A stretch of DNA of 64,000 bases. It comes from Gammaproteobacteria bacterium. Lineage in GTDB: Bacteria; Pseudomonadota; Gammaproteobacteria; Eutrophobiales; Eutrophobiaceae. Position 1 is the stretch's first letter. Every line of letters begins with the position of its first letter. Below, one piece after another: positions 10,035 through 57,816 of the stretch. The notes beneath the pieces are model-generated. The model was not told where the DNA came from, did no database searches, and was given only the letters and a program-made list of their open reading frames with translations. The stretch is taken from NCBI GenBank assembly GCA_965200295.1, contig OZ241347.1, positions 2,615,272 to 2,679,271 of the forward strand. The letters are read 5' to 3'. Position numbers and translations under genes: made by a program.

Positions 10035-10042
10035 AGAAAATA

Positions 10043-10123
10043 TCAGTCAATCTTTAATACGCCGTAAAGCAGGACAGCCACATAAAAGGCTACACTTGCC
10101 GTCAGGGCTATAAAGGCAATCAT
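10043..10123 (-). CDS. small hydrophobic peptide (26 aa, MIAFIALTASVAFYVAVLLYGVLKID), copy 1
   Basis: ATG preceded by AGGAAA 5 nt upstream; single predicted TM helix; tandem paralog of the next peptide. Confidence 0.4.
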   Translation of the reverse strand: MIAFIALTASVAFYVAVLLYGVLKID

Positions 10124-10158
10124 ATTTTTCCTGCATGCTTCATATTACAGCGTGTCAA

Positions 10159-10236
10159 TCAAATTGTCAGTGCGCCGTAAAGCAGAACACCAACAAAAAA
10201 GACTGCACATGCTGTCAATGCAATAAATGCCATCAT
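10159..10236 (-). CDS. small hydrophobic peptide (25 aa, MMAFIALTACAVFFVGVLLYGALTI), copy 2
   Basis: ATG preceded by GAGAGGTGG; paralog of copy 1 (about 60% identical) with the conserved core AFIALTA...LLYG. Confidence 0.4.
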   Translation of the reverse strand: MMAFIALTACAVFFVGVLLYGALTI

Positions 10237-10387
10237 GTCTTGCCCACCTCTCTGATATGTTTTTGAATGCGTAGAAAAAGTACTAAATTGGCGCATCCCA
10301 ACATGGAAAGAAGCGCCACACCCGCCCAAAAAACCTCATTGATATTGTCAGACAGGTACAAACTCACCAGCCCGCTTATTATAAGGG

Positions 10388-10417
10388 AACCTCTAAAAAT
10401 GCCCTCCGTGGCATTTT
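10388..10417. repeat. left piece of a palindromic MITE-like element (cctctaaaaatgccctccgtggcatttt) interrupted by the IS110 element
   Basis: the right arm stops after ggcatttt; the missing tagag... resumes at 12204. Confidence 0.7.
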
Positions 10418-12203: not shown

Positions 12204-12322
12204 TTAGAGACGGAAACGAAAAAATGTGATTTTTCGTTTCCTTCATTTTCAAACACTTACGTGCTTAAAAATGGCAGCATGTCCCTATGCTGCACGGCCA
12301 CCTCTAATTTTTAGAGGTGGCC
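12204..12322. repeat. remainder of the long (five-hairpin) composite palindromic element, reverse orientation, ending in the gccacctctaatttttagaggtggc hairpin
   Basis: reverse complement matches the long copies at 38385-38526 and 51573-51720 almost base for base. Confidence 0.75.
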
Positions 12323-12377
12323 TAATGATTAACATCAAGCACACTGTTGCGGCGTTAGGTCATAGGAGTTATCGTTT

Positions 12378-13748
12378 ATGATTGGCATATTGCAAATGCT
12401 GCTGGCGTTCATCGTGGCGCTGGGAGTCCTGATCACGTTCCATGAGTTCGGCCACTTCTGGGTGGCTCGACGTTGTAACGTCAAGGTCCTGCAATTTGCG
12501 GTGGGCTTCGGGCGGCCGTTGTGGCGGCGCAAGTTCGGCGCTGATGACACCGAATTTGTCATTGGCATGGTGCCGTTGGGCGGCTACGTGAGAATGCTGG
12601 ATGAACGCGAGGCGCCGGTGTCGGCAGCCGAGCAGGGCCGGGCCTTTAACAACAAATCGCTGGGGCAACGATTCGCCATTGTTGCCGCCGGCCCCATTTT
12701 CAATTTCATCTTTGCCATCCTGGCGTACTGGCTGGTCTTCATAATTGGCATTACCGGGCTCAAGCCGGTGCTGGGTTCGGTGCAGGACGGCAAGCCGGTG
12801 GCGCAGTCCGGTTTGCAGGCGGGCGATGAGATTATTGCCATCGACGGGCAGGCGACGCCGACCTGGAATACCGCCTTGGAATATCTGGTGGCCGGCGTGG
12901 TCGAAGGCGATACTGCGGCGCTACGGGTACGCGACGGGCGCGGCGCCGAGCGGGCGCTGACGCTGGACCTGGGCGCCATTTCTATCGACGCAATGGCCGC
13001 GGGCAACCTGCTGGACTTGCTGGGTTTCGAGCCGGCGCGCCCGCGCGCGCCGGCGACGCTGGGGCAGGTCAGCTACCAGGGCGCGGCCTGGTGGGGCGGT
13101 CTGCGTGAGGCTGATGAAATCGTGGCCGTTGACGGCGTGCCCGTGCAGGGTTGGCAGCACTGGGTTGAGCTGATCAGGGCGGCGCCTGATACGCCTATGA
13201 CTGTCACCATAGCCAGAGACGGCGCCACCATAGACATGGTAGTCACGCCCGAGGCAAAGACCAGTGAGCAGGGCGAACGCATCGGCTTTATCGGGGTCGG
13301 TCTCGACCCTGCGGCCGGTATGGATGACTCCCTGTTGGCACGCGAAGCCTATCCCTGGCATCAGGCGGCATGGAAAGGAGTAGTTAAAACCATTGATATG
13401 TCTGTTATGACCCTGCAGATATTAGGGCGCATGATTACCGGTCAGGCCTCCCTGAAGAACCTCAGCGGCCCGGTCAGCATTGCCCAGTACGCAGGACAGA
13501 CCGCGCAACTGGGTATAGTTGCATTCCTGGGTTTCCTGGCGCTGGTCAGCATCAGCCTGGGGATTTTGAATCTGCTGCCGATTCCCATGCTCGACGGCGG
13601 TCACCTGTGTTACTATCTGGTAGAGTTTGTCAAAGGCAGCCCGGTGTCGGACGCGGTGCAACTGCTGGCCCAGCGCGTGGGGCTGGTGCTGTTGTTCAGC
13701 CTGATGGCGCTGGCGATTTACAATGACGTCCTGAGACTGGTCGGTTAA
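12378..13748 (+). CDS. rseP: sigma-E regulator site-2 protease RseP (zinc metalloprotease)
   Basis: HEFGH zinc motif at the N-terminus; PDZ domains; C-terminal LDGG motif; AGGAG RBS. Confidence 0.9.
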   Translation: MIGILQMLLAFIVALGVLITFHEFGHFWVARRCNVKVLQFAVGFGRPLWRRKFGADDTEFVIGMVPLGGYVRMLDEREAPVSAAEQGRAFNNKSLGQRFAIVAAGPIFNFIFAILAYWLVFIIGITGLKPVLGSVQDGKPVAQSGLQAGDEIIAIDGQATPTWNTALEYLVAGVVEGDTAALRVRDGRGAERALTLDLGAISIDAMAAGNLLDLLGFEPARPRAPATLGQVSYQGAAWWGGLREADEIVAVDGVPVQGWQHWVELIRAAPDTPMTVTIARDGATIDMVVTPEAKTSEQGERIGFIGVGLDPAAGMDDSLLAREAYPWHQAAWKGVVKTIDMSVMTLQILGRMITGQASLKNLSGPVSIAQYAGQTAQLGIVAFLGFLALVSISLGILNLLPIPMLDGGHLCYYLVEFVKGSPVSDAVQLLAQRVGLVLLFSLMALAIYNDVLRLVG

Positions 13749-13772
13749 AATAGCTCGTAGCTTTGCTTATTT

Positions 13773-16700
13773 ATGGCGAGAGACAGGCAAAATCCTGCGT
13801 GGCTTGCTGCCTTGTTGGCGGCATCGCTGCTCATCCTGACCAGCCTGCCTGCCCAAGTCCTGGCGCAGCAGGTGCTCGTCAGCAACCTCGGCCAAGCCGA
13901 CTTCGCCACCGCCAGCCCCATTGCCAGCTTGCTTGGCGTGTTCGATCACGCCCAGCAATTCACCACTGGCAGCAACAGCGCAGGCTACTGGCTGAGCAGC
14001 GTCGAGATTGAATTCGGCCGACTCGACGCCGGCTTCCCTTTTTCGGTGTCGATTCGCACCAATGCCAGCGGCTCGCCGGGAACAGTGGTGGGTACACTGG
14101 CGAATCCCTCCTACACCGCGTTCACCACCGACACGGTGCTGAAGTTCACGGCGGCGGGCGACGGCATCGCCCTTGCGGCCAGCACGTCGTATTTCCTCGT
14201 CCTCGACGTCACTAGCGACTCCGGCAGCAACTTCGCCACTTGGCGGGTCACCACCTCAATGAGCGAGGACAGCGGCGGCGCCAGCGGCTGGAGCATCGCC
14301 GATCTGCACCGCTTACGGCAGAACGTGGCTGACGCTGCATGGGTCAACAACGTAGTCACCTCCACCCTCAAGATCCGCATCAACGGCTCGGCCGTCACCC
14401 TCCCCACGGTCACCATCGCCCGCGTTGCCACGCCGGTCACCGAAGGCGCGGCTGCCCGCTTCACCGTCAGCCGCACGGGCGCGACCACGGGGGCGTTGGC
14501 GGTGCAAGTGTCGGTGTCCGAGAACAGTGCTGGCGGGCAGAACTTCGTGGCGTCAACCAACGAAGGCGCTAAATCAGTCAGCATTCCTATGGGTTCCGCA
14601 TCGGCGGTCTATTCCGTGGCGACCGTGGGCGATGCCATCGACGAGCCGGACGGCGCGGTGACCGTGACGCTGGCGAGCGGTTCCGGCTATACCGTCGGCA
14701 GCCCGTCAACGGCGAGCGTGATGGTCAACGACGACGACCTGCCGGTTGTCACCATTACCAGCGGTGCATCGTCGGTGACGGAGGGCACGGCGGCAAGCTT
14801 CACGGTGACCCGCGCCGGTCTGACGACGGCGGCGCTGACGGTGAACGTCAATGTCGCGGATGTCGCGGGCAGCGATTTCGTGGCGTCGGACGACGAAGGC
14901 GCGGACACGGTGACGATCCAGGCGGGACAAGCCTCGGCAGCCTACAGCGTCGCCACCGTGGCGGACAGAGTGGTTGAGGCGAGTGGAAATGTGATAGTTA
15001 CCGTATCGACGGGCACGGGCTATACCGTCGGTAGTCCGCCATCCGCGAACGTGATGGTTAACGACGACGATACCGCTGCCGTGCTCATCAACGGCGCGGA
15101 CAGCAACATCACGCTTTCAGTCGGCGAGGACGACGGCACCGCCACCTACACCATCCGGCTCGACAGTCAGCCGAGCCACAATGTCACGGTCACAGTGAGT
15201 TCGGCCAGCGAAAACACAGCCACCGTGAACAAGGCGGGCGGCTCGGCCGGCGAGACGCAGACGCTCACCTTCACGCCGAGCGGCACCGGCGCGTGGAATG
15301 TCGCGCAGACCATCACTATAACCGGTGTCAACAACACTAGCGACGATGCCAACAACCGGCGCACTTCGCTCATCACCCACACGGCGGCTTCGAGCGACGC
15401 CAATTACAGCGGCATCACCCCCATCCCGACCGTCACAGTCACGGTGACCGACGACGACACGCCCGAGTTGACCGTGTCGGCACAGGGCGGCGTCACAACC
15501 GTCAACGAGAACGGCGCCGCCGCGACGATCATCGTCACCTCGAATATTCAAGTCGACGGCTCAATCGACTACGGCCAGCCGAGCGTGTCCACGGGCGGCG
15601 CCGTCAGTGCCGACGGAACGACTATTGCTGGCGGCAACACGAGCAACACCTATACCGTCAGCGCGAGCGACAACAACCGCGACGAGGCCGACTGGTCGAT
15701 CACCACCGGCATTGCCGCCGGCACTGGCTACACACTCGGCTCGCCGAGCGCCGTCATGCTCACTGTTCGCGACGACGACCCGACGGTCGTCTCGCTCGCT
15801 GGCGGTGGCCGCGTGTTCGAAGGCGAGGGGACGACATTCACGGTCACGCTTGGTCGCGACCTCGCCGCCGGCGAGATCATTGACGTGCCGCTGGCCATCA
15901 CCGGTGCTGGCATCACCCCGAGCGACTGGCGTTTGGCGCTTGCGAGCGGCATGGGTCTCAACACAGGCGTGACGCTGAATGGCGCCAACACAGCCACGCC
16001 GCAGCTTCGCTTCGCAGGCGCCGGCGCGCGCACGGCGACGCTGACGCTGACCGCCGAGGCGAGTAGCGGCGGCAAGACAATACGAGTGGAGCTAGGACCG
16101 GATGGCAGCGGCGCCAACGGGTTTGATCGCAGCGGTCTTGGCACCAACGTCGGCGGCGGCGCGGACCCGCACGCCACGGCTCTTCGAATCATGCTGGTGG
16201 TCACTGCCGATACCGTCGTCAACGACCGCGACTTCCTCGCTTTTGTGCGTGCCCCTGGCGAAACATCGGCATCCAGGCGGACTGAAGGCTCGCGTCTGAC
16301 GCTGTCCGTCCACCGTATCGCCTTCACGTCCGACAACAACAACCTGCACACGCCAGACGACTGGGGGTTCCGGCTCTGCTTCACCGGCGCCGCGACGCCC
16401 GGCGCGGACTTTTCGGTCAGCCACGGCGGCGGGCGCACATCGCTCGATCAAGAGGGCTGCACACGGACGAACAGCGCGGAGGACGGCACCGCGTTGCCCG
16501 CGCGACTGAGCGTCGCGCGCTTCTACATCAAGCTCTTGCACGACGATTTGGACGAGAGCGATGAGCGCGTTGTCGCGACCTTGACGCGAACGATTAACAC
16601 CGGGGTTTCCGGGCAAGGATTGAGTGAGTTTCGCTTCACCATCAGCGAGCCGCCCCTGATCGACAAGGTGCGCCACTACACCAGTGAAATTTGGCGCGGC

Positions 16701-19568
16701 TACGATCATGTCCTGCGTTGGCAGCGTGTGCTCTTTGCGCTCAGCGACGGCAGCGAAGGCGAAGGCCCGGCCATGACCGCAACCGAGGCGCAAGACTATG
16801 CGAATCGCGGCATGACCCGCTGGGCGCCAGTGGCGGCGGCGCTCTCACCGCTGCAGACGCAATCGGCAAGCCCACAGGGTGAGGGCAGCGAGGCAAGCTC
16901 ACAGGATGAGGATAGCGAGGCAAGCTCACAGGATGAGGATAGCGAGGCAAGCTCACAGGATGAGGATAGCGAGGCAAGCTCACAGGATGAGGATAGCGAG
17001 GCAAGCTCACAGGATGAGGATAGCGAGGCAAGCCCGCAGAGTGAGGGCAACGAGGTAACCCCGGATAGCGAGACCGAGGGTGAGGCGCCCGCAGACGATG
17101 ATGTGCAGGGTGACGCGCCTTCGGATAGCGAAGCGCCGGTCGAGCCGGTTGCAGCAGAGGACACGTTCGTGCCGGATGCCGCGCTGGTCGCGAACATCCG
17201 TGCCTGGCGCAGCGAGACCCAGCACGGTCAGGCGCATGTGGATCGGTGGACGCGGGTGCTGATCGCGTTCAAAGTAGAAACCGGTAGCCTCGCGCCGATG
17301 AGTGCGGCCGAGGCGCAGACATACCTCGACAAAGGCTGGACGCGCTGGGAACCCGTGGTGACGGCGCTTAAGTCGATGCAAGCTGACACGCAGCAAGCGG
17401 CCGCCTCGGAGCAGAACGACACGCAAGCGACTACCGAGCAAGACGAGGCGCCGCAAGCCACAGACGAGGAGAACGAACCCGCGCCCACAGAGCAGGACGA
17501 AGCGCCAGCGGCCGAGGACGAGCAGGACGAGCCCGTGACCATGGCACAGGGCGATGAACCCGCCCCCACCCCGGCATTGTCGGTCTCGGATGCGAGCGGC
17601 GCAGAAGGTTCGACCATAAAGTTCACCATCACGCTTGCCCCGGCCGCAACAGACACCGTGAGCGTGTGGGTGTCCACCAGAGAGTCGCAGCCGGTGTCCG
17701 CGCATAAGAACAGGGACTACCAGCACAACGGCGAGTGGCTGACGTTCAAGCCCGGCGAGACCCGGCAGCACCACCGGGTTTACACCCTTGACGATGCGCA
17801 CGACGACTCGGGAGAAACTTTCGAGCTGGTACTGTCACAGGCGCGTGGCGCGGTGATCGCCGATGCAGTAGGTGTGGGCACGATCATGAACGACGACCCA
17901 CTGCCGGCGGCCCACCTCGCACGGTTCGGACGCACCGTGGCCGAGCACGCGCTCGGCGGCATCGCCGGGCGCTTGGAGGCACCGCGCGCGCCGGGGCTGC
18001 GCGGTGTGTTTGCCGGCCGGGCATTCAGCGCGGCGCCGGGGAGTAAGACCGGCCACCGGCGGCGTAGCGGGGGGGGTACCGGCGCGCCGAACGGGCTCGA
18101 TGGCTTCCATACCCCCGGCGGGGGCGTCGGCGTGAACCCATCGTCGAGACGATCAGCCTTGGCGGGCGACCTCCATTCAGCCGTTGCTCAGTCACTCGAT
18201 GCCCAATCATTTGATACCCAGTCACCCGACGCTGGCGCCTCCATGACCGCGCGTGCAGTACTGTTAGGGTCGAGCTTCACGCTGACCCGGGCCGCCGACG
18301 GCGCCGGCGGCAGTCTGGCTTTCTGGGGCCGCGCCGCGCAAAGTCACTTTGACGGCGTTGACCGCGGCCACGGTACCGATGTGACTCTCAACGGTAAGGT
18401 CACCACCGCCATGCTGGGCGCCGACTACGCCCGGGGCGACTGGCTCGTCGGCCTGGCGCTGACCGAGACCGCGTCCACAGGCGGCTATAGCGCCGCCGCC
18501 GGTAATCCCTGTATGGGTGAGATCGGAGCCGGGGCTATGGCCGATACTATGGACAGCCCCCCGGAATTGTGCGCTACGGACGGCCCTGGCGCTGCGGCTG
18601 GTCTCGGTGCTACGGCAGGCCTGGGCGCCGGTGAGGTAGAGTCTTCCCTGACGGCCGTCATTCCCTACGCCACGCGCCGGGTCGCCGAGCGGCTGACATT
18701 GTGGGGCGCCACCGGCTATGGCCGAGGCGCAGTGACACTGACGCCGGGCGCCGGTGAAACCCTCACCGGCGACGCCCCCCTCAGTGCTGACACCGACTTT
18801 ACCCTGGCCGCGGTAGGCCTGCGCGGTGACCTGCTCGCTCCCGTCGGATTCGGGCCGGCGCTGGCGCTCACCTCCGATGCCCTGTGGACGCGTACGACCT
18901 CAGCGGGGACGCACGGCCTCCTGGCCTCAGCATCCGCCGTGACCCGGCTGCGGCTGGGTCTGGAGGGCAGCTGGGCGCTGGACTTTGCCGGCGCCCGGCG
19001 TGTTACGCCGACGCTGGCCGTCGGCGCCCGCCACGACGGTGGCGACGCCGAGACCGGCTTTGGTATTGAGCTTGGCGGTGGCGTGCAGTGGATCGAGCCG
19101 CGCCTCGGCCTGACGCTCGACATCTCGGCCCGCACGCTGCTGGCGCATGGAGATGACGACATCAAAGACCGGGGCGTCTCCGCGGCGCTGACCTTCGACC
19201 CGGCGCCGGGGACGCCCTTCGGCCCCCGGCTCAGCCTGCGCCAGGACTTCGGTGGGCCGGCTCAGGGCGGCCTTGATGCACTGTTCCGACCGGAGACGCC
19301 GCAGCCGCGGCACGGCGCTCATGACGCCGCCCGTTGGACGCTGGAGGCGGACTACGGCCTGCCCGCCTTGCAGGGGCGCTTCAGCGCCCGCCCGCTGGCC
19401 GGTATCGGACGCGCCGGCGGGGTGCAGGACTACCACCTCGGCTGGCAGTTGACGCCGGCGGCGGCGCACGCCCCCGACATCTCTTTCAGTGCACGCGCAG
19501 TGCGGCGTGTACCGGCGCGGGCCGCGGCTGAACATGGGATTGAACTCAGGCTCAACTGGCAGTGGTAG
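13773..19568 (+). CDS. giant (1931 aa) surface protein: signal peptide, N-terminal domain, five or more Calx-beta-like ~110-aa repeats, duplicated unknown domain, acidic 9-aa tandem tract, C-terminal autotransporter beta-barrel
   Basis: repeats ending in VNDDD with TEG...F.V.R motifs (Calx-beta-like); C-terminal ~300 aa with alternating beta-strand pattern ending LRLNWQW (type Va translocator signature). Confidence 0.8.
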   Translation: MARDRQNPAWLAALLAASLLILTSLPAQVLAQQVLVSNLGQADFATASPIASLLGVFDHAQQFTTGSNSAGYWLSSVEIEFGRLDAGFPFSVSIRTNASGSPGTVVGTLANPSYTAFTTDTVLKFTAAGDGIALAASTSYFLVLDVTSDSGSNFATWRVTTSMSEDSGGASGWSIADLHRLRQNVADAAWVNNVVTSTLKIRINGSAVTLPTVTIARVATPVTEGAAARFTVSRTGATTGALAVQVSVSENSAGGQNFVASTNEGAKSVSIPMGSASAVYSVATVGDAIDEPDGAVTVTLASGSGYTVGSPSTASVMVNDDDLPVVTITSGASSVTEGTAASFTVTRAGLTTAALTVNVNVADVAGSDFVASDDEGADTVTIQAGQASAAYSVATVADRVVEASGNVIVTVSTGTGYTVGSPPSANVMVNDDDTAAVLINGADSNITLSVGEDDGTATYTIRLDSQPSHNVTVTVSSASENTATVNKAGGSAGETQTLTFTPSGTGAWNVAQTITITGVNNTSDDANNRRTSLITHTAASSDANYSGITPIPTVTVTVTDDDTPELTVSAQGGVTTVNENGAAATIIVTSNIQVDGSIDYGQPSVSTGGAVSADGTTIAGGNTSNTYTVSASDNNRDEADWSITTGIAAGTGYTLGSPSAVMLTVRDDDPTVVSLAGGGRVFEGEGTTFTVTLGRDLAAGEIIDVPLAITGAGITPSDWRLALASGMGLNTGVTLNGANTATPQLRFAGAGARTATLTLTAEASSGGKTIRVELGPDGSGANGFDRSGLGTNVGGGADPHATALRIMLVVTADTVVNDRDFLAFVRAPGETSASRRTEGSRLTLSVHRIAFTSDNNNLHTPDDWGFRLCFTGAATPGADFSVSHGGGRTSLDQEGCTRTNSAEDGTALPARLSVARFYIKLLHDDLDESDERVVATLTRTINTGVSGQGLSEFRFTISEPPLIDKVRHYTSEIWRGYDHVLRWQRVLFALSDGSEGEGPAMTATEAQDYANRGMTRWAPVAAALSPLQTQSASPQGEGSEASSQDEDSEASSQDEDSEASSQDEDSEASSQDEDSEASSQDEDSEASPQSEGNEVTPDSETEGEAPADDDVQGDAPSDSEAPVEPVAAEDTFVPDAALVANIRAWRSETQHGQAHVDRWTRVLIAFKVETGSLAPMSAAEAQTYLDKGWTRWEPVVTALKSMQADTQQAAASEQNDTQATTEQDEAPQATDEENEPAPTEQDEAPAAEDEQDEPVTMAQGDEPAPTPALSVSDASGAEGSTIKFTITLAPAATDTVSVWVSTRESQPVSAHKNRDYQHNGEWLTFKPGETRQHHRVYTLDDAHDDSGETFELVLSQARGAVIADAVGVGTIMNDDPLPAAHLARFGRTVAEHALGGIAGRLEAPRAPGLRGVFAGRAFSAAPGSKTGHRRRSGGGTGAPNGLDGFHTPGGGVGVNPSSRRSALAGDLHSAVAQSLDAQSFDTQSPDAGASMTARAVLLGSSFTLTRAADGAGGSLAFWGRAAQSHFDGVDRGHGTDVTLNGKVTTAMLGADYARGDWLVGLALTETASTGGYSAAAGNPCMGEIGAGAMADTMDSPPELCATDGPGAAAGLGATAGLGAGEVESSLTAVIPYATRRVAERLTLWGATGYGRGAVTLTPGAGETLTGDAPLSADTDFTLAAVGLRGDLLAPVGFGPALALTSDALWTRTTSAGTHGLLASASAVTRLRLGLEGSWALDFAGARRVTPTLAVGARHDGGDAETGFGIELGGGVQWIEPRLGLTLDISARTLLAHGDDDIKDRGVSAALTFDPAPGTPFGPRLSLRQDFGGPAQGGLDALFRPETPQPRHGAHDAARWTLEADYGLPALQGRFSARPLAGIGRAGGVQDYHLGWQLTPAAAHAPDISFSARAVRRVPARAAAEHGIELRLNWQW
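16880..17040. repeat. perfect 27-bp tandem repeat x5 (caggatgaggatagcgaggcaagctca) encoding (SSQDEDSEA)n inside the giant gene
   Basis: seen directly; in-frame acidic low-complexity linker. Confidence 0.9.
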
Positions 19569-19663
19569 GCGCGGCCGGGGGCGGTTCCGGCATTTGGCGG
19601 GAATGGCTGAGTGTGATAAATGAGTGTTGATTTTTTAGTCGTAGTGTTTCAGTATAAGCCGCT

Positions 19664-21982
19664 ATGTTAGTAGAAAGATTGAAAGCCTGCCTGATTTTGG
19701 CGGCGTTGTTTTTGCCTTGCGTGTCTGGCGGGCTTGTGGCGCAGGAATTTGTCATCGAGGATATCCGGGTCGAGGGCTTGCAGCGCCTGACTCCGGGCAC
19801 CGTATTTAACTACCTGCCGCTGGAAGTGGGCGATAAATTTAATCCGGAAGTGTCGTCCGAGGCGGTCAGCGCCTTGTTCAAAACCGGTTTTTTCGATGAC
19901 GTGCAACTGCAACGGGACGGCAATGTGCTGGTGCTGGTGCTCAGGGAGCGGGCGGCCATCGGCAGTATCGAGATCAGCGGCAACAAGGACATCAAGACCG
20001 AAGACCTGCTGGACGGGCTGAACCAGATCGGCTTTGCCGAAGGGCGAGTGTTTGACCAGTCGCAACTCGATGGCCTGGAACGGGAGTTGCGCCGCCAGTA
20101 TTTTTCCGCCGGTAAATACGCGGTAAACATCAATTCTGAGGTAACGCCGCTATCCAATAATCGGGTGGCGGTCGCCATCGACATTTCGGAAGGCAAGGCC
20201 GCGCGTATCAAGCAAATCAATATCGTTGGTAACCAGTCGTTTCGGGAAGGTGATTTGCTGGACCAGTTTGAGTTGTCCAAACCCACCCTGTTTTCGTTTT
20301 TTACCAAGGACGACCAGTATTCACGACAGAAGCTGTCCGGCGACCTGGAAACCCTGCGCTCGTTTTACCTGGACCGGGGTTACGTCAATTTCAGCATCGA
20401 TTCCACCCAGGTATCCATCACCCCCGACAAGAAAGATATTTACATCACCATCAATATCACCGAAGGCGGGCAATATACCATCTCCGGGGTGAAACTGGCG
20501 GGCGAGTTCATCCTGCCGGAAGCAAGCCTGTATAACCTCATCAGCGTCACCCGGGGCAGCCTGTTCTCGCGCAAGCAGGTGACCGATAGCAGCGAGCGTA
20601 TGACCGAGCGCTTAGGCGGTTCCGGTTACGCGTTTGCCAACGTCAATTCCATCCCCGACATCAATGAGGACGACAACACGGTAGAGGTCACGTTTTTTGT
20701 GGACCCGGGCAAGCGGGTGTATGTGAGGCGCATCAATTTTTCCGGCAACACCCGCACCCGGGACGAGGTGCTGCGTCGGGAAATGCGTCAGCATGAGGCC
20801 GGCTGGATTTCCACCCCCAAGGTGGAGCGCGGCAAGATCCGCTTGCAGCGGCTGGGCTTTTTCGAGGAAGTGAACGTGGAAACACCGGCCATCGCCGGTT
20901 CCGCCGACCAGGTTGACGTCGATTATACCGTTACCGAGAAGCCGTTCGGCAACTTTCTGGCGGGCCTGGGGTTTTCCCAGAACCAGGGGTTGATCTTCCA
21001 GACCAGCATCACTCAGGATAATTTTCTGGGTTCCGGCAAGCGCATACAGTTTGCCTTTAACAACAGCGACATCAATCGCCGCTTTGCCTTGGGCTACGTC
21101 AACCCCTACTACACCGTGGACGGGATCAGCCGCGGGTTTAACCTGAATTACCAGGAAACGGAGGCCTATGACGCCAACATCACCGCGTTCGATAGCCGGG
21201 TGATAGGGGCTGGTGTGAGTTTTGGCCTACCGGTGACGGAGTATAATTTCGTCAGCACCGCCTTCGGCTATGAAAATACGCGCCTGTCCGAAGATCGTTT
21301 CTTCGCCCAACAGGTGGTGGATTTTATTGAACGGGAAGGCAGCAAGTTCGATATTCTGCGTCTGTCTGCGGCGTTTTCCTACGACACGCGCAACCGGGCG
21401 ATATTGCCCACCCGCGGCGTGCAGCACCGCTTCAGTTCGGAGATATCCATACCGTCATTCGGTAATTCCCTGGAATTTTTCAAGGTAGGCTACCGCACTC
21501 AGTGGTATTATCCGGTATTGCGTGAATTCATTTTTACCGTAAAGGGAGATTTCGGCTATGGTGACGGTCTGTTCGGCACCGATGAACTGCCGTTCTTTGA
21601 GAACTTCTATGCTGGCGGCCCGCGTTCGGTGCGCGGCTACGAGGAAAATACTTTGGGTCCCAAGGATACGCCGGTGCGGGGCGGCACCCGGCGGCGGCCG
21701 CTGGGCGGCAATATCAAGGTGGTCGGCGGCGCCGAGATGATCTTTCCGCTGCCGTTTCTCAAGGACTTCAAGCAGGTCCGGTTTGCCGCATTTTTTGACG
21801 GCGGCAACGTGTATTCCAGCGATGAGTCGTTTGAATTCAGTGAGCTCAGGTACTCCACCGGCCTGAGCGGCATCTGGATCTCACCTTTTGGCCTGGTAAG
21901 TGTTAGTATAGCCAGACCCATTGGTGACAAGGCAGGTGATGAGACGCAACCGTTCCAGTTTACTTTTGGTTCAACTTTTTAG
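19664..21982 (+). CDS. bamA: outer membrane protein assembly factor BamA
   Basis: 772 aa; five POTRA repeats plus Omp85 barrel; C-terminal ...FQFTFGSTF. Confidence 0.95.
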   Translation: MLVERLKACLILAALFLPCVSGGLVAQEFVIEDIRVEGLQRLTPGTVFNYLPLEVGDKFNPEVSSEAVSALFKTGFFDDVQLQRDGNVLVLVLRERAAIGSIEISGNKDIKTEDLLDGLNQIGFAEGRVFDQSQLDGLERELRRQYFSAGKYAVNINSEVTPLSNNRVAVAIDISEGKAARIKQINIVGNQSFREGDLLDQFELSKPTLFSFFTKDDQYSRQKLSGDLETLRSFYLDRGYVNFSIDSTQVSITPDKKDIYITINITEGGQYTISGVKLAGEFILPEASLYNLISVTRGSLFSRKQVTDSSERMTERLGGSGYAFANVNSIPDINEDDNTVEVTFFVDPGKRVYVRRINFSGNTRTRDEVLRREMRQHEAGWISTPKVERGKIRLQRLGFFEEVNVETPAIAGSADQVDVDYTVTEKPFGNFLAGLGFSQNQGLIFQTSITQDNFLGSGKRIQFAFNNSDINRRFALGYVNPYYTVDGISRGFNLNYQETEAYDANITAFDSRVIGAGVSFGLPVTEYNFVSTAFGYENTRLSEDRFFAQQVVDFIEREGSKFDILRLSAAFSYDTRNRAILPTRGVQHRFSSEISIPSFGNSLEFFKVGYRTQWYYPVLREFIFTVKGDFGYGDGLFGTDELPFFENFYAGGPRSVRGYEENTLGPKDTPVRGGTRRRPLGGNIKVVGGAEMIFPLPFLKDFKQVRFAAFFDGGNVYSSDESFEFSELRYSTGLSGIWISPFGLVSVSIARPIGDKAGDETQPFQFTFGSTF

Positions 21983-33544: not shown

Positions 33545-33587
33545 GGCCACCTCTAAAAATGCCACGGAGGGCATTTTTAGAGGTTCC
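33545..33587. repeat. short palindromic element (ggccacctctaaaaatgccacggagggcatttttagaggttcc) between the divergent phrB and argC
   Basis: canonical 14-bp-arm form with a 7-nt loop. Confidence 0.8.
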
Positions 33588-38332: not shown

Positions 38333-38366
38333 CCCCTGAAAATGCCCGTCCGGGCATTTTCAGGGG
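38333..38366. terminator. diverged palindrome cccctgaaaatgcccgtccgggcattttcagggg directly after the TBDR stop (bidirectional hairpin)
   Basis: 14-bp perfect stem in the repeat-family style; likely acts as a terminator. Confidence 0.45.
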
Positions 38367-38384
38367 ATGCTACAGCAGTTACAG

Positions 38385-38526
38385 GGCGCCTCTAAAAATT
38401 AGAGGCGCCCGTGCAGCATAAGGATATGCTGCCATTTTTAAGCACGTTAGTGCTTGAAAATGAAGGAAACGAAAAATCATACTTTTTCGTTTCCGTCCCT
38501 AAAAATGCCATGAATGGCATTTTTAG
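38385..38526. repeat. long composite palindromic element (five consecutive hairpins, ~142 bp), + orientation
   Basis: near-identical to 51573-51720 and to the reverse complement of 12204-12322. Confidence 0.85.
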
Positions 38527-42798: not shown

Positions 42799-42842
42799 GG
42801 GCGCCTCTAAAAATGCCACGGAAGGCATTTTTAGAGGTTGCC
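42799..42842. repeat. short palindromic element (gggcgcctctaaaaatgccacggaaggcatttttagaggttgcc)
   Basis: canonical form; lies between the pnt operon and the ATP-grasp gene. Confidence 0.8.
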
Positions 42843-42964
42843 ACAAGTGACTTGAGCGTGTAGCTGCAGTATAATGGTTCGGCATCGCTACTGCAGCGCC
42901 GTTTTCGATACCCGCTGACGCAAGTAAATTCCCGCACCGGAATAAAACCCGTAACGAGCATGAC

Positions 42965-44020
42965 ATGAACAAAGGTACAGGAACAAGTTCTCTCCACCCG
43001 CGTTGCCTGCAAATTTCCCAGGTCCATAAGGATACCTTGCACTTCCTGTTCCTTGCCAAACACGCGCTCGGCAGCGGCTTGCCCGATGCTGAAGATGGCA
43101 ACCACGCGGTGTACCACTACGACATCCTGCAAAAACTGCGCGGCATCGGTTTGCGGGTCACGCCGGCGAACACGTTTGAGGCGCTGTACGGCAAGCCTGA
43201 TTTTGATTTTTTGATTACGCTGTTCAACCGCGCCGGTTTCAGGAACAGCGAAATGTTTGCGCCGCTGTTTGGTGAGTATCATCGCATCCCCTATCTGGGC
43301 GGCTCGCCCATTGTGCGCGGGGTCTCCGATGATAAACACGTGACCAAGCGCATCGTGCAGGCCTTAGGGATTGCTACGCTGCCGTGGAAGTATTACCCCA
43401 TGGGCGGTCTGGATAATGCCGCGCCTGAGTTCGGCCCCGACTTTCACGACCATGCGTTCATCGTCAAGCCCAACGCCAGTTCCGGTTCCTGGGGCGTGCG
43501 CCAGCTTGCCTGCCGGAATGAAGCGGCGCGGCATATTGCAGAGCTGCACGGGCAGGGCCATGACGTGATCGTGGAGCCCTGCATCGACGGCGCTGATTTT
43601 GCCGTGCCCGTCATTGGCGCGCGCAAGCCCTGGATGCTGCCGATCATCCAATACCAGTACGCTCAGGGCAACATGCGCACTTACGAGCAGAAGCGCGGCC
43701 TGCTCCATGAACATACCCCAACCGAGTGTGTGACGCTGAATGACGCGCGCCTGGAACAGCGGTTCCACCCGCCGTGCCGGCAGATTATCGCCGAGTTCTG
43801 GCCGTTCGACCACGCCCGCATCGAATTTCGGGTGGACAAGCGCACCGGCCAGGCCTATTTCATCGAAATCAACCTGAACTGCAATCTGGCCGCAGACAAG
43901 GCCATTGCCGTCAGCGCCGCCAGCTTGGGCGTCAGCCACGAGCAGCTTATCGAGACGGTTATCTGTAACAGCTTGCTGCGACAGGGCGTCATCAGCGAGG
44001 TTGCAACGATCGCGGCCTGA
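42965..44020 (+). CDS. ATP-grasp domain protein (D-Ala-D-Ala-ligase-like fold), function unknown
   Basis: 351 aa; C-terminal ATP-grasp signatures (IVEPCIDG, FIEINLN); no obvious ligase N-domain. Confidence 0.55.
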   Translation: MNKGTGTSSLHPRCLQISQVHKDTLHFLFLAKHALGSGLPDAEDGNHAVYHYDILQKLRGIGLRVTPANTFEALYGKPDFDFLITLFNRAGFRNSEMFAPLFGEYHRIPYLGGSPIVRGVSDDKHVTKRIVQALGIATLPWKYYPMGGLDNAAPEFGPDFHDHAFIVKPNASSGSWGVRQLACRNEAARHIAELHGQGHDVIVEPCIDGADFAVPVIGARKPWMLPIIQYQYAQGNMRTYEQKRGLLHEHTPTECVTLNDARLEQRFHPPCRQIIAEFWPFDHARIEFRVDKRTGQAYFIEINLNCNLAADKAIAVSAASLGVSHEQLIETVICNSLLRQGVISEVATIAA

Positions 44021-44022
44021 AC

Positions 44023-44856
44023 ATGGCGGAGTTAAAGGAACCTGCAAAAACACCCCCCGCGGCGGCTGCTCCGGCCTATACCGTACTCCTGCTCGCCGCG
44101 CAGCGCCGTGGCGACGACCGGCTGTCAGCCTTGACCGGCGCTCGCCACAAGTGCCTGATCGACCTTCATGGCCGCCCCATGATCGCTTGGGTGCTGGACA
44201 CCTTGCTGGCCGCGCCCATGGTCAGGCAGGTACTTATATCCATCGAGGACGCCTCAGTGCTGGCCGGCGTTTCTGAGGTCGCAGCTGCGCGGGTGCAGGT
44301 CATCACCAGCGCCGACAACCTCTATGCCAGCGTCGAACGCGCGCTGACGGGCGCCCCCGGCAACTGTCCGGCGCTCATCACCACGGCCGACAACCCGTTA
44401 CTCAGTGTGGAAATGTTGACGCATTTCTGCAGTGAACTGGAGCGGCGTCAGGCCGACGCCGCGGCAACAATGACCCGGGCCGAACTGATGCGGGCAAAAT
44501 ACCCAAAAGGTCAGCGCCGCTTCTACGCCTTTCGGGATGACGAGTATTCAAACTGCAACTTGTATGCACTGGCTAATGCCCGCGCCTTGCACGCTGCCAA
44601 AATCTTTCAACACGGCGGGCAGTTCAGGAAAAAAATCATCCGCACCCTGCGCGCCTTCGGCCTGTTTAATGTTATCCTCTACAAACTGCGCGCCCTGACC
44701 CTCAACGACCTCGCCGAACGCCTGTCCCACAGCTTCGGCCTCCGCCTCACCTTCATCACAATGCCCTTCCCGGAAGCCCCCATAGACGTGGACAACGAAC
44801 GCACTCTCAAGATCGCCCGCGCGATCATCGGCCAACGGCTGCAGGAAACATCCTGA
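44023..44856 (+). CDS. MobA-like NTP-transferase domain protein with ~80-aa C-terminal extension
   Basis: 277 aa; N-terminal LLLAAQRRGDDRL...GRPMIAWVLD resembles the nucleotidyltransferase GxGxR P-loop; starts 2 nt after the ATP-grasp gene. Confidence 0.5.
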   Translation: MAELKEPAKTPPAAAAPAYTVLLLAAQRRGDDRLSALTGARHKCLIDLHGRPMIAWVLDTLLAAPMVRQVLISIEDASVLAGVSEVAAARVQVITSADNLYASVERALTGAPGNCPALITTADNPLLSVEMLTHFCSELERRQADAAATMTRAELMRAKYPKGQRRFYAFRDDEYSNCNLYALANARALHAAKIFQHGGQFRKKIIRTLRAFGLFNVILYKLRALTLNDLAERLSHSFGLRLTFITMPFPEAPIDVDNERTLKIARAIIGQRLQETS

Positions 44857-44867
44857 CTCGATCAGCT

Positions 44868-45257
44868 TCATCCCACATTCAGGAATGCGAGCAGTTCCTG
44901 CGGGTCCAGACATTTTACGACTGAGTATTTAAACCCCTTCGTATCCCGGCTGACAATGGCCTGTGCGCCGACAAGGTACGCAGCTTGTTCTATGACAGCA
45001 TCTTCAAAGTCCTGTATCCGGCTTTTGATCGCCTCCTCAATGACAGGTCGATTAACCGGCGCGATTTCAAACAACTCCAGTAATCGCTGCAAAGCAGCGT
45101 GGGCGTCGGATTTTTCCAATACCTTTGATAACAGGTAGTCAATCGTTGTAACAGTGGTGGCACACAGGTAGGATTCAAGCTCTGACCGCTCAGTCAGGGC
45201 AAAGATTGTTGCAGCGGACTGCACAAACAGTTCCCGTGCGAGCAGGAGGTCGAGCAC
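44868..45257 (-). CDS. PIN-domain ribonuclease toxin (VapC-like)
   Basis: acidic PIN residues present (DTN at the N-terminus, internal E, D, SRD); the true N-terminus probably extends to ~45284 (in-frame LKILVDTNVV upstream of the called GTG), overlapping the antitoxin stop. Confidence 0.7.
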   Translation of the reverse strand: MLDLLLARELFVQSAATIFALTERSELESYLCATTVTTIDYLLSKVLEKSDAHAALQRLLELFEIAPVNRPVIEEAIKSRIQDFEDAVIEQAAYLVGAQAIVSRDTKGFKYSVVKCLDPQELLAFLNVG

Positions 45258-45280
45258 GACGTTGGTATCGACCAGTATTT

Positions 45281-45523
45281 TCAGAGATATTTCTCGCTGA
45301 GATGTTTCTTGTGAGCGGATTCGTCAATACTGTGTCCTTCAAGCGTGCCCAGCAGCGAGGCGGTAACGGGAGGCAAGCAATTCACAGCTTCACGATCGGG
45401 CACGCCAAGGGAATTAAAAAACTCTCCCACCATTTGGGAAACGGATTTACCGCGCCGACCCGCTTCGGATTTGGCTTTTTTAATAAGTGTCTCGTCCATT
45501 CGTAATGTAATCTTCGTATTCAT
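45281..45523 (-). CDS. ribbon-helix-helix (CopG/VapB-like) antitoxin
   Basis: 80 aa; N-terminal beta-strand TKITLRMDETLIKKAK typical of RHH; directly upstream of the PIN gene. Confidence 0.65.
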   Translation of the reverse strand: MNTKITLRMDETLIKKAKSEAGRRGKSVSQMVGEFFNSLGVPDREAVNCLPPVTASLLGTLEGHSIDESAHKKHLSEKYL

Positions 45524-45555
45524 GACGTACAAAATAAAAGAGTTTGTACGTCATG
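45521..45555. promoter_or_regulatory. 13-bp perfect inverted repeat (catgacgtacaaa-N9-tttgtacgtcatg) spanning the antitoxin start codon
   Basis: candidate autoregulatory operator of the RHH-PIN operon. Confidence 0.45.
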
Positions 45556-45732
45556 TCAAATATTATTCCGGTATTCGACTCCCGAATCTTGTGTCAGAGA
45601 TTTGAGGGGCAGTGGTGACGCATGCCCCGCCGCAGCCAGTCAATAAACCATTGGTGGTTGCGATGGTACAGGGTAAGACACGCACACCCGGCCGCTGCGT
45701 AACAACACCGCGGCCGGGTGGATGGGGAAGGC

Positions 45733-46404: not shown

Positions 46405-46499
46405 TACAAACCTCCGATGGTTATGGTGACAATATGAATCATAGGGGCAATGGTGTTACTTTTCAAGATATTTCGGATAAAATGAGGTTTGTGCTGAAC

Positions 46500-46964
46500 G
46501 GAGAGGTGGCAGAGCGGTTGACAAATTCGCCGGGAGCGAATTTGGACAGCGTAGCTGGCCCCGCAGGGGTGACCTACATGGAGGTAGGTCACAGTGCACC
46601 GGGAACCGGTGCGTAGGTACTTGATGAGCTGATGAAGGATCGACAACTCCGAACGGAGAGGTGGCAGAGCGGTTGACAAATTCGCCGGGAGCGAATTTGG
46701 ACAGCGTAGCTGGCCCCGCAGGGGTGACCTACATGGAGGTAGGTCACAGTGCACCGGGAACCGGTGCGTAGGTACTTGATGAGCTGATGAAGGATCGACA
46801 ACTCCGAACGGAGAGGTGGCAGAGCGGTTGACAAATTCGCCGGGAGCGAATTTGGACAGCGTAGCTGGCCCCGCAGGGGTGACCTACATGGAGGTAGGTC
46901 ACAGTGCACCGGGAACCGGTGCGTAGGTACTTGATGAGCTGATGAAGGATCGACAACTCCGAAC
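46500..46964 (+). repeat. three perfect tandem copies of a 155-bp unit, each starting with the first 22 nt of tRNA-Ser (GGAGAGGTGGCAGAGCGGTTGA) followed by 133 nt of hairpin-rich sequence
   Basis: period 155 bp; the copies are identical; the fourth (partial) copy is the 5-prime end of the intact tRNA at 46965. Confidence 0.9.
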
Positions 46965-47055
46965 GGAGAGGTGGCAGAGCGGTTGAATGCACCGGTCTTG
47001 AAAACCGGCAAGGGTTGATAGCCCTTCGTGGGTTCGAATCCCACCCTCTCCGCCA
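46965..47055 (+). tRNA. tRNA-Ser (anticodon UGA), class II with long variable arm
   Basis: cloverleaf: acceptor GGAGAGG/CCUCUCC; anticodon loop CUUGAAA; T-loop GGTTCGAATCC; encoded CCA. Confidence 0.9.
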
Positions 47056-47174: not shown

Positions 47175-48098
47175 TCAATCACACCCATAGCCATTGTACT
47201 GGACCTCGAAGATCGCGCGTGGGTTGTTCACGACCCGGTAGTGCTGCGTGTTGTCGCGTAAGTTCACGGCGGTTGGCAGAGTCCAACCATATCCATAATT
47301 AGGGGTCGTATCACAGATCGGATCGCTGATTCTGTTCGGCACCGAATTGCACCATGGGCGGCCTGAGTTGACAGGTCCACTTACCGTACAACCATCCTGC
47401 CACGTATACGTCTCCGCGCCCGGCGCCTGGACACGCACCCGGCAATTTACTTCTTTGTTCGTTATAAAAGTGCACCACGCACCAGTGGCGTTACTGGGTG
47501 GGGTGGGGCAGCAATCATGCCCATTGCACTCGGTCTCCACTTTTCTGCCGGCCCCCGTAAACACCCCCCGCTGCGACGAGATCGCCGTCCCGCCCGGAGC
47601 GCCCCGGCAGTCGCTGCAGGAGGTCAGGAGGCTGACCCGGATCACCCGTCGTTCGGATACCGGCATGGGCGCGTAAGAAGATGCCTTCTGCCTGAAACGG
47701 ATGATGTTGTCCCCTTTTCGGAATGTCACTTTTGCCTGCCCATTGGCCAAATTCGCCCCATCAACAAACACGCCGCCGCCGACATTGTACTCTATAACGT
47801 CGTGGGGGCTGAACTGGAGCCGCGCCTGTGCCCAACCGTCCGTGTAGTCCGATCCCGGTTCAAAGAACCCGCCCCACGCCTCGACATTCACCGCCGATTC
47901 CGTGCTGGGCATTCCCGGATCGCAGGCGTCCAGAACCTGCGGCCCCTTGTATTCGAGCCAGATTTTCGCCTGGCCCTGTGTGTTCTGAGAGGTGGCCCAC
48001 ACCGGCGCGGCCATCACCGTCGCCACCAGCGCGGCGGTTACTGCGGCTAATTTAGCAAGGGGGGGGGGGGGGGGGGGGGGGGTAAGTAAGTGTTTCAT
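47175..48098 (-). CDS. secreted cysteine-rich protein of unknown function with a poly-Pro stretch in the signal-peptide region
   Basis: 307 aa; MKHLLT-P7-LAKLAAVTAALVATVMAAPVWA signal; ~20 Cys; no recognisable family. Confidence 0.55.
   Translation of the reverse strand: MKHLLTPPPPPPPLAKLAAVTAALVATVMAAPVWATSQNTQGQAKIWLEYKGPQVLDACDPGMPSTESAVNVEAWGGFFEPGSDYTDGWAQARLQFSPHDVIEYNVGGGVFVDGANLANGQAKVTFRKGDNIIRFRQKASSYAPMPVSERRVIRVSLLTSCSDCRGAPGGTAISSQRGVFTGAGRKVETECNGHDCCPTPPSNATGAWCTFITNKEVNCRVRVQAPGAETYTWQDGCTVSGPVNSGRPWCNSVPNRISDPICDTTPNYGYGWTLPTAVNLRDNTQHYRVVNNPRAIFEVQYNGYGCD
48059..48082. repeat. 24-nt G homopolymer (poly-C on the coding strand) within codons 6-14 of the Cys-rich protein gene
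   Basis: seen directly; encodes T-P7; slipped-strand contingency-locus candidate. Confidence 0.9.
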
Positions 48099-57737: not shown

Positions 57738-57765
57738 TCTGTATCTTAAATTCACATCAGGGCGC
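57738..57765. promoter_or_regulatory. conserved 28-bp upstream box, copy B (aggtaacaaatctgtatcttaaattcac)
   Basis: ~86 nt upstream of the Rieske B2 start. Confidence 0.5.
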
Positions 57766-57767
57766 CT

Positions 57768-57816
57768 CTAAAAATGCCCTCCATGGCATTTTTAGAGGCG
57801 CCCTGATGTGATATGC
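57768..57816. repeat. short palindromic element (cagggcgcctctaaaaatgccctccatggcatttttagaggcgccctg)
   Basis: canonical form with extended GC clamp; between the divergent Rieske operon and the HDAC-like gene. Confidence 0.8.

Follow-up and report, generated by a model that had tools for sequence, protein, structure and literature searches.

A coupled ATP-grasp ligase and nucleotidyltransferase pair as a candidate module for envelope lipid head-group synthesis

Introduction

Which pathway calls for an ATP-grasp ligase and a nucleotidyltransferase encoded side by side? The question is raised by two adjacent genes in a 64,000-nt stretch of a Gammaproteobacteria bacterium genome (contig OZ241347.1, positions 2,615,272 to 2,679,271 of the forward strand), which we call the window throughout. 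An initial annotation had described the genes as a ligase plus nucleotide-activation cassette next to a VapBC-like toxin-antitoxin module and had left the pathway unassigned. Here we report that the ligase gene and the gene for the nucleoside triphosphate transferase (NTP-transferase) form one operon whose products are very probably functionally coupled. Tentatively, and with a little under even confidence, we propose that they constitute a soluble two-enzyme module that makes or tailors the head group of a sphingolipid of the outer membrane (of ceramide-phosphoglycerate type, or a glycosphingolipid) or of a closely related envelope glycolipid. Our confidence in any specific chemistry is much lower than in the coupling or in this overall proposal. 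Both superfamilies are known, as is the logic of activation plus ligation; the coupled pair itself has no described function or literature (we found no publication on what it does) and is misnamed in public annotation.

Results and Discussion

The two genes are conserved as a pair

Both proteins have hundreds of homologues, with E-values down to 1e-100 and below, and are therefore the products of real genes and not of chance open reading frames (ORFs; coordinates are collected in Table 1). Only 2 nt separate the genes (TGA at 44018-44020, then 'ac', then ATG), the spacing given in the initial annotation, and with this gap and no obvious ribosome-binding site the NTP-transferase gene is probably translationally coupled to the ATP-grasp gene. 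The promoter-like site upstream likely drives the two-gene operon. In a close relative (locus L084), where the pair is 96% and 88% identical to that of the window and the flanking pnt and Bax1-I genes are kept, GTGACTT.AGCG.G.AGCT.CAGTATAAT is retained directly 5' of the orthologous ATP-grasp gene, despite an insertion sequence (IS) element upstream there.

The association extends well beyond these two genomes. When one genome per GTDB species was scanned with a pattern, 473 genomes proved to encode a relative of the NTP-transferase; all locus counts given here come from the best 80. The ATP-grasp gene lay immediately 5' and on the same strand in 66 of the 80 loci (gap -33 to +107 nt) and 2.6-3.6 kb away in seven more; the other seven had none within 10 kb. 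Moreover, the two domains are joined, in the order of the gene pair, in two independent fusions, P0127 (604 aa) and P0361 (617 aa). The initial annotation had made its proposal depend on co-conservation of the two genes, and 73 of the 80 genomes together with the two fusions bear it out. Carriers are mostly Sphingomonadales, Hyphomonadaceae (Hellea, Algimonas, Litorimonas, Hyphomonas) and Kordiimonas, with a few Gammaproteobacteria including that of the window. For biochemical work the naturally fused proteins would be practical material. Some loci (L011, 2265-5053, and L028, 841-3605) hold two window-type NTP-transferase copies that flank or precede the ATP-grasp gene, in the order NTP-transferase, ATP-grasp, NTP-transferase.

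Catalytic residues and substrate pocket of the ligase

A C-terminal domain resembling that of D-Ala-D-Ala ligases had been recognised in the ATP-grasp protein at the outset. This was confirmed by a match to PF07478 (Dala_Dala_lig_C; E = 7e-13, Pfam) and by an AlphaFold model (predicted local distance difference test, pLDDT, 88.8) with a three-domain Ddl-like fold, whose best Protein Data Bank (PDB) matches are Ddl enzymes (TM 0.72/0.82, ~20% identity). Against the NCBIfam Ddl model TIGR01205 the protein scored 69.6 bits, with a cut-off of 245.65, and all other Ddl and Van models scored lower. For residue comparison we used a HMMER alignment to Yersinia Ddl and judged invariance from 25 members of the family; 70 columns of the family alignment are invariant. 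K168, E204, K243, R285, E287, E301 and N303 align with Ddl K144, E180, K215, R255, D257, E270 and N272, and all are invariant in the 25 members, so that the fold and the ATP/Mg2+ residues that mark the Ddl family (E. coli DdlB numbering) are both present. The Ddl contacts to D-Ala (S150, Y216 and S281/L282), as judged from the alignment, are not retained: S150 aligns with G174 of the window protein (alanine in most relatives), the Y216 region with R244-G245-L246 plus an indel, and S281 with K312. The N-terminal domain of the family has highly conserved motifs of its own (FLAKHA, DGxHAxYH and NRxGFxNSEM). When 1.84 billion cluster representatives were searched with a profile, only 95 clusters matched the ligase family at E <= 1e-30, and the family is therefore compact.

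On these residues the ATP-grasp enzyme is predicted to be a catalytically intact Ddl-type ligase with an altered substrate pocket, whose substrates are not those of D-Ala-D-Ala synthesis. Its substrate is probably anionic, because the family holds many invariant basic residues, and an acyl-phosphate mechanism is likely, because the Ddl fold and the ATP/Mg2+ and catalytic residues are kept. This fold and these residues are common to Ddl, VanA and the window ligase; the latter differs from both in its low identity (~20%), its scores under the family cut-offs, its changed substrate contacts, its own N-terminal motifs and the lack of a cell-wall gene context. VanA shows that members of the Ddl family can form esters to 2-hydroxy acids.

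The nucleotidyltransferase is of the TTHA0179/CC_1153 type

The 277-aa protein matches PF12804 (NTP_transf_3; E = 6e-14, 52.9 bits against a cut-off of 27) and, more weakly, CTP_transf_3 and IspD. Its NCBIfam scores were 24.2 bits for MobA (TIGR02665, cut-off 151.85), 14.9 for MocA (TIGR03310, cut-off 186) and 14.5 for CofC (TIGR03552, cut-off 105). No NCBIfam cut-off was reached by either protein of the pair, the Ddl, MobA, MocA, CofC, KdsB and IspD models all staying far under theirs, and therefore neither protein belongs to a named equivalog family. By sequence, PDB entry 2DPW (TTHA0179 of Thermus thermophilus) was matched over residues 35-262 (E = 2e-12, or 8e-21 with the family profile); the same profile gave E = 1e-3 for CobY (3RSB) and 0.46 for CofC (2I5E). 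The NTP-transferase fold that the initial annotation had expected was confirmed by structure prediction (AlphaFold pLDDT 91.8): Foldseek ranked 2DPW first (TM 0.73/0.87), followed by KdsB, IspD, TarI and the GlmU N-domain, with probability 1.0 for 2DPW, KdsB, IspD and TarI. The family shows no variation at R28, K43, D123, D255 and D257, which by analogy would be catalytic, the first two binding the nucleotide and the acidic residues binding metal; fold, R/K motif and acidic residues together place the protein among the nucleotide-diphospho-sugar transferases.

TTHA0179 is thus the best match in both sequence and structure. The match runs along almost all of the protein and takes in the C-terminal lobe, but at 24% identity, and TTHA0179 is a structural-genomics protein for which we found no function or literature. 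The comparison changes how the protein should be described. "MobA-like with a novel C-terminal extension", as it had been called, is misleading: the additional length relative to MobA and CofC is real but not novel, being the usual C-terminal lobe of nucleotidyltransferases the size of KdsB and IspD, and it aligns throughout with 2DPW. The protein is of normal size for the TTHA0179/CC_1153 type and, from sequence and model, appears cytidylyltransferase-like, with KdsB and IspD nearest after 2DPW. With the domains correctly named, the genes co-conserved and the fold confirmed, the generic reading as a ligase plus nucleotide-activation cassette stands.

Public annotations of such proteins ("D-alanine-D-alanine ligase", "phosphoribosylglycinamide synthetase", "MocA", "CobY") would make the pair a spare D-Ala-D-Ala (or D-Ala-D-X) ligase for peptidoglycan beside an ordinary MobA/MocA/CobY cofactor enzyme, and Ddl is indeed what the ligase matches best in Pfam and the PDB. 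We regard this as very improbable, since the Ddl, MobA and CofC scores lie far under their cut-offs, conservation is missing at the positions that align with S150, Y216 and S281 of Ddl, there are no mur/fts or molybdopterin/cobalamin genes nearby, and neither tight coupling nor fusion would be expected for such roles. Ddl, MobA and CofC identities were accordingly rejected on the missed curated cut-offs and the absent Ddl substrate residues, and the four public names are wrong for these proteins.

Relation to CC_1153 and CpgD

A first connection to lipids comes from the family of the NTP-transferase. CC_1153 (CCNA_01211) is needed to form ceramide-diphosphoglycerate (CPG2) in Caulobacter (PMC11324152). 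How bacteria make sphingolipid head groups is under active study and understood only in part; the reactions of Caulobacter CpgA, CpgC and CC_1153 are not known, and the authors of these studies expect further enzymes (PMC12275187, PMC11324152). In the Hyphomonadaceae-type clusters described below, the NTP-transferase adjacent to bcerS is the positional equivalent of CC_1153. We made the comparison through a positional orthologue, P0262 of the cultured Amphiplicatus metriothermophilus, and not through the Caulobacter sequence; a protein search seeded with the paralogue from a Caulobacterales metagenome-assembled genome (MAG) had no named Caulobacter protein among its best 120 matches. P0262 lies in a canonical cluster (L089) with cpgC, cpgB, cpgA (CDP-OH_P_transf), Metallophos and lptFG on one side and a CpgD-like PF00483 protein and a flippase on the other. 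Between P0262 and the window NTP-transferase, homology is full-length, with 32% identity over 259 aa (E = 2e-31); across all loci, identity to the bcerS-adjacent copy of locus L087 is 26-34%.

The window protein and CC_1153 share their length class and the layout R...K...D...DxD, and CC_1153 has been annotated as MobA/CobY/CofC-like (PMC11324152 S1 Text), as is the family of the window protein. Furthermore, the clade of the window protein can occupy the same bcerS-adjacent position, as in the gammaproteobacterial locus L031. The window protein itself is not an orthologue by clade or by a bcerS, lptFG2 or cpgD neighbour; its clade-mate in L031 does hold that position. The two also differ in that the window protein is coupled to an ATP-grasp ligase, whereas the Caulobacter cluster is without one.

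CpgD (CCNA_01210) is a CTP:phosphoglycerate cytidylyltransferase (PMC12275187). It resembles the window protein in general fold, reaction type and pathway neighbourhood, and serves us as a working model. Orthology with CpgD was rejected: BLASTP against the CpgD-like protein of L089 gave E = 1.8, and the window protein has no PF00483 match. The L089 protein matches PF00483, LicC (1JYK) and 4JD0, the latter two being resemblances published for CpgD (PMC12275187), while the window protein matches 2DPW, KdsB and IspD instead. In Rhizorhabdus wittichii the published orthologues are Swit_1306 for CC_1153 and Swit_1309 for CpgD, flanking cpgA and a HIT gene. The pair is found there among AMP-binding, flippase, GT4 and ATPgrasp_ST genes, and because this locus differs from that of Swit_1306/Swit_1309, its NTP-transferase is a third nucleotidyltransferase in this species.

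Neighbourhoods of the pair

Gene neighbourhoods bring the pair itself close to sphingolipid genes. In a marine Hyphomonadaceae-type group (L087, L013, L017, L018 and L019, several of these records being named Algimonas or Litorimonas), the order is Aminotran_1_2 (spt-like), cpgC-like, DAGK_cat (cpgB-like, ceramide kinase type), two LptF/LptG genes, DUF2141 and bcerS-like, continuing with the CC_1153-type NTP_transf_3, a flippase, a HAD-IB phosphatase, the ATP-grasp and NTP-transferase genes, and an LpxO-like hydroxylase. The Caulobacterales MAG (L029) has the pair with a flippase on one side and CC_1153-type, Metallophos (CC_1158-like), DAGK and cpgC-like genes on the other. In Novosphingobium (L050, L054, L077 and L081) it is divergent from an operon headed by the gene for a 490-aa protein and continuing with flippase, DAGK and cpgC-like genes. 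Finally, in L031 (Gammaproteobacteria bacterium SJ34, ~6800-20100) an NTP-transferase of the window's clade is part of a complete-looking, compact cluster of ceramide/phosphosphingolipid type, with bcerS-like, LpxO-like, NTP-transferase, LptA-like, two LptF/G, cpgC-like, flippase, Aminotran_1_2 (spt-like), cerR-like epimerase and AMP-binding (aasR-like) genes; the ATP-grasp gene is absent from this cluster. The gene sets of all four match the Caulobacter region CC_1152-CC_1168 (PMC11324152, PMC9393093, PMC12275187), and Sphingomonadales and Caulobacterales are known to produce sphingolipids (PMC11324152, PMC9393093).

With three alphaproteobacterial lineages and the L031-type cluster pointing to lipid head-group synthesis, the earlier suggestions of a modified nucleotide, a peptide-nucleotide conjugate or cofactor tailoring lose ground. 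The pathway of the cassette, which the initial annotation could not assign, is no longer wholly unassigned given this lipid context.

The commonest partners over all loci are a ~490-aa protein (27 loci), a Polysacc_synt (Wzx-like) flippase (23), ATPgrasp_ST (12) and GT4 (7). Gammaproteobacterial pair loci sometimes have a third gene, either ATPgrasp_ST or a class-III aminotransferase. The 490-aa protein (for example L056, 7318-8808, minus strand, and 26 other loci) is divergent from the pair, and all its carriers are Sphingomonadales or unclassified alphaproteobacterial MAGs. It had no Pfam, NCBIfam or PDB sequence match; its motifs give us an impression of class-V pyridoxal phosphate enzymes. 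In two unlabelled metagenome contigs on the gammaproteobacterial side (L090, 10852-12522, and L091, 11056-12363), the gene after the pair encodes a 556-aa class-III aminotransferase, overlapping the 3' end of the pair, or Exo_endo_phos (an EEP-family phosphoesterase).

Weighing a lipid head-group role

Several observations weigh against the lipid head-group proposal. No sphingolipid gene is recognisable in the 64-kb window (tblastn with 14 reference families), and the proposal is therefore an argument from association. A strict sphingolipid marker lies within 10 kb in only 14 of the 80 loci, and because these fall in about five lineages, the lipid association reflects few independent events. 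The gammaproteobacterial relatives nearest to the window have the complete pair in unrelated, variable contexts with no adjoining sphingolipid genes. In a neighbour-joining tree the ATP-grasp-linked proteins, including those of the window and L031, form one clade and the CC_1153-type proteins another; both types are found together in the Hyphomonadaceae-type group, Sphingobium and the Caulobacterales MAG, and because the separate clades co-occur in this way, the window type and the CC_1153 type are paralogues and not orthologues. CC_1153 has itself no biochemically known activity (PMC11324152). The nucleotide specificity suggested for the window enzyme comes from its nearest structures only, and the ATPgrasp_ST, GT4 and Wzx-like flippase partners would fit polysaccharide modification equally well.

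That the pair stands alone in Gammaproteobacteria is what would be expected of a self-sufficient module using common metabolites. It could then make or tailor a soluble small molecule (a cofactor tail, for instance, or a compatible solute, or a conjugate of a nucleotide with an amino acid or peptide), and its sphingolipid neighbourhoods would be lineage-specific gene order. Its partners include a second ATP-grasp protein (ATPgrasp_ST) and the class-III aminotransferase that overlaps its 3' end, and the NTP-transferase has a weak match to the CofC model TIGR03552 (E = 0.02). Several ligases beside a CofC-like enzyme recall the tail of F420, in whose synthesis the nucleotidyltransferase CofC/FbiD works with glutamyl ligases; the shared logic would be a MobA-like nucleotidyltransferase for a small phospho-hydroxy-acid, combined with ligases that use ATP. 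On the other hand, the window protein does not match CofC models (14.5 against 105 bits; 2I5E, E = 0.46), no F420 genes lie near the pair, and no locus has cofactor core-synthesis genes beside it. Since the pair is also found within sphingolipid clusters in three separate alphaproteobacterial orders, with its clade present in a gammaproteobacterial cluster as well, and since its taxonomic range fits sphingolipid producers, we consider a soluble product rather unlikely, if a serious alternative.

Modification of a surface polysaccharide or oligosaccharide (capsule, exopolysaccharide or O-antigen-like), for example by amidation of a uronic acid with supply of a nucleoside diphosphate (NDP)-activated substituent, would account for the recurrent Wzx-like flippase, for ATPgrasp_ST ("sugar-transfer associated") and for GT4; GT2-GtrA and ManC genes also lie a few kb downstream in the close relative L084. 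Campylobacter capsule amidoligase systems combine an ATP-grasp amidoligase with a HAD phosphatase, and the HAD-IB gene directly 5' of the pair in the Hyphomonadaceae-type group resembles this arrangement; the pair differs in having no capsule genes near it. In Sphingomonadales, where the main surface glycoconjugates are glycosphingolipids, this alternative largely merges with the lipid proposal. However, sugar-nucleotide synthesis genes are not consistently linked to the pair, none of these partners occurs in the window, and the same flippase type is found in the Caulobacter sphingolipid cluster, as CC_1166 (PMC11324152 S1 Text), and in the L089 cluster. Altogether, a polysaccharide role seems unlikely to us.

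Returning to the lipid head-group proposal, the module would act on one small, probably anionic, substrate. By analogy with CpgD acting on phosphoglycerate (PMC12275187) and CofC on phospholactate, the NTP-transferase would couple a small acid or alcohol that carries a phosphate to an NTP (CTP being the likeliest), yielding a head-group donor in NDP-activated form. The ATP-grasp enzyme, again by analogy, would spend ATP on turning a carboxylate into an acyl phosphate and might then link this to an amine or hydroxyl, either on the same precursor or on the head group of the lipid, forming an amide or a VanA-like ester. A more specific version, which we put forward as doubtful, is that the pair and a variable third partner (ATPgrasp_ST, HAD-IB, the 490-aa protein or the aminotransferase) build an undescribed head group on ceramide-phosphate or glycosphingolipids, for instance an amino-acylated or esterified one of phosphoglycerate type from a CDP-activated donor. 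This would be an alternative to the Caulobacter CpgA/CpgD branch in Sphingomonadales free of lipopolysaccharide (LPS), in marine Hyphomonadaceae and in some Gammaproteobacteria.

What has been identified is a coupled, sometimes fused module, with a paralogue of CC_1153, that in several lineages replaces or adjoins known head-group genes. In bacteria that have sphingolipids in place of LPS or in addition to it, the pair is a concrete candidate for a new modification of outer-membrane lipids, and an undescribed head group, if real, would also give a first handle on the type of reaction carried out by the CC_1153 family. Should the lipid link fail, the pair would remain a well-defined orphan two-enzyme module of ~470 species genomes.

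The adjoining toxin-antitoxin module

The pair is flanked on its 5' side by the transhydrogenase genes pntAA-pntAB-pntB, on the opposite strand, and on its 3' side by convergent PIN_3 and DUF6364 genes followed by a Bax1-I family gene. The stop codons of the convergent NTP-transferase and PIN genes are only 11 nt apart (44856-44868), with no terminator-like site between them; read-through and antisense interference are possible there.

The canonical PIN ORF, starting at GTG 45257 (44868-45257), is without the first 8 profile positions and loses the first conserved acidic residue (VDTN). Extension to CTG 45284 gives a full-length PIN_3 match (profile 1-115; 80.4 against 64.2 bits), and this CTG overlaps the antitoxin stop codon, TGA 45283-45281, as CTGA (4-nt overlap). 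Because the extension restores the full match and produces this overlap, the non-ATG start overlapping the antitoxin stop, first proposed in the initial annotation, is confirmed. The 13-bp perfect inverted repeat that had been noticed over the antitoxin start is likewise present: its perfect 13-nt arms (45521-45533 and 45543-45555), unique in the window, cover promoter-like -35 and -10 elements and the antitoxin ATG. At the level of sequence it is operator-like, and it is a candidate autoregulatory operator. The -10 element ends 7 nt before the ATG and there is no Shine-Dalgarno sequence, which suggests that the DUF6364/PIN mRNA may be leaderless, with the operator repeat including the start codon. 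The module resembles VapBC in its complete PIN domain, its small 5' partner with a 4-nt overlap and the inverted repeat over its promoter; it differs in that the antitoxin is a DUF6364 protein with a weak CopG/ribbon-helix-helix (RHH) signal (CopG_antitoxin, E = 0.081, Pfam) and in the apparent CTG start of the toxin.

Adjacency and the closely spaced stop codons might suggest that the enzyme cassette is cargo of the PIN/DUF6364 module, or otherwise tied to it, for example in a defence island; the initial annotation had grouped the two in one block. The comparison with L084 speaks against this, as the toxin-antitoxin pair of the window is absent at that site and a different RHH-like gene with a decayed, 39-aa PIN remnant is found there. 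Moreover, no toxin-antitoxin family recurs beside the pair in the 80 other genomes, and the module has a GC content of 51-52%, compared with 60-63% in the enzyme pair and in the pnt genes. Together these three observations make the module a bystander, an independent mobile insertion; a functional tie was ruled out by the comparative locus and the GC content, and we give it next to no credence. In L084 an IS-type integrase (rve, 7512-8756) lies between pntAA and the ATP-grasp gene, and the RHH-like/PIN remnant spans 11116-11516. The site looks like an insertion hot spot.

Table 1. Features of the locus, in window coordinates
Feature	Position	Strand	Description
ATP-grasp ligase gene	42965..44020	+	351 aa; ATG start
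NTP-transferase gene	44023..44856	+	277 aa; ATG start; TTHA0179/CC_1153 type
Candidate operon promoter	42847..42875	+	GTGACT, 17-nt spacer, TATAAT; 10/12 matches in consensus scan; ~90 nt 5' of ATP-grasp gene
PIN-domain toxin (VapC-like)	44868..45284	-	138 aa if started at CTG 45284; PIN_3 (PF13470), E = 2.3e-22
DUF6364 antitoxin-like	45281..45523	-	80 aa; ATG 45523; PF19891, E = 3e-17, profile 1-70 against residues 1-79
Candidate operator/promoter	45521..45559	-	-35 TTGACA 45559-45554; 17-nt spacer; -10 TATTTT 45536-45531; 13-bp inverted repeat
Repetitive extragenic palindrome (REP)-like palindrome	42804..42837		CCTCTAAAAATGCC-N6-GGCATTTTTAGAGG; perfect 14-nt arms 42804-42817 and 42824-42837; pntAA/ATP-grasp intergenic

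Other features of the window

The palindrome upstream of the pair had been taken to bound the block. It belongs instead to a dispersed REP-like family: further full copies lie at 33550-33583 and 57765-57798, degenerate ones near 38333-38509 and a half-site at 10390, and the arms have 10 matches in the window against 0.4 expected. The palindrome is absent at the corresponding site in L084. As a cassette boundary or operator it was therefore rejected, and it is best regarded as a bystander.

Downstream, a perfect 155-nt tandem repeat (46496-46986; 3.2 copies, 100% identity) lies beside tRNA-Ser(TGA) (46965-47055). The repeat unit starts with an apparent 5' part of tRNA-Ser, and the last copy runs into the real tRNA gene; the repeat could be an integration-site duplication or an assembly artefact. 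The sX4 small RNA model matches at the repeat under its cut-off, and an Rfam scan of 42-48 kb found the tRNA-Ser region alone. A 307-aa ORF with no Pfam match (47175-48098, minus strand) begins with a proline run (MKHLLTPPPPPPPLAKL...) and has a signal-like stretch and many cysteines.

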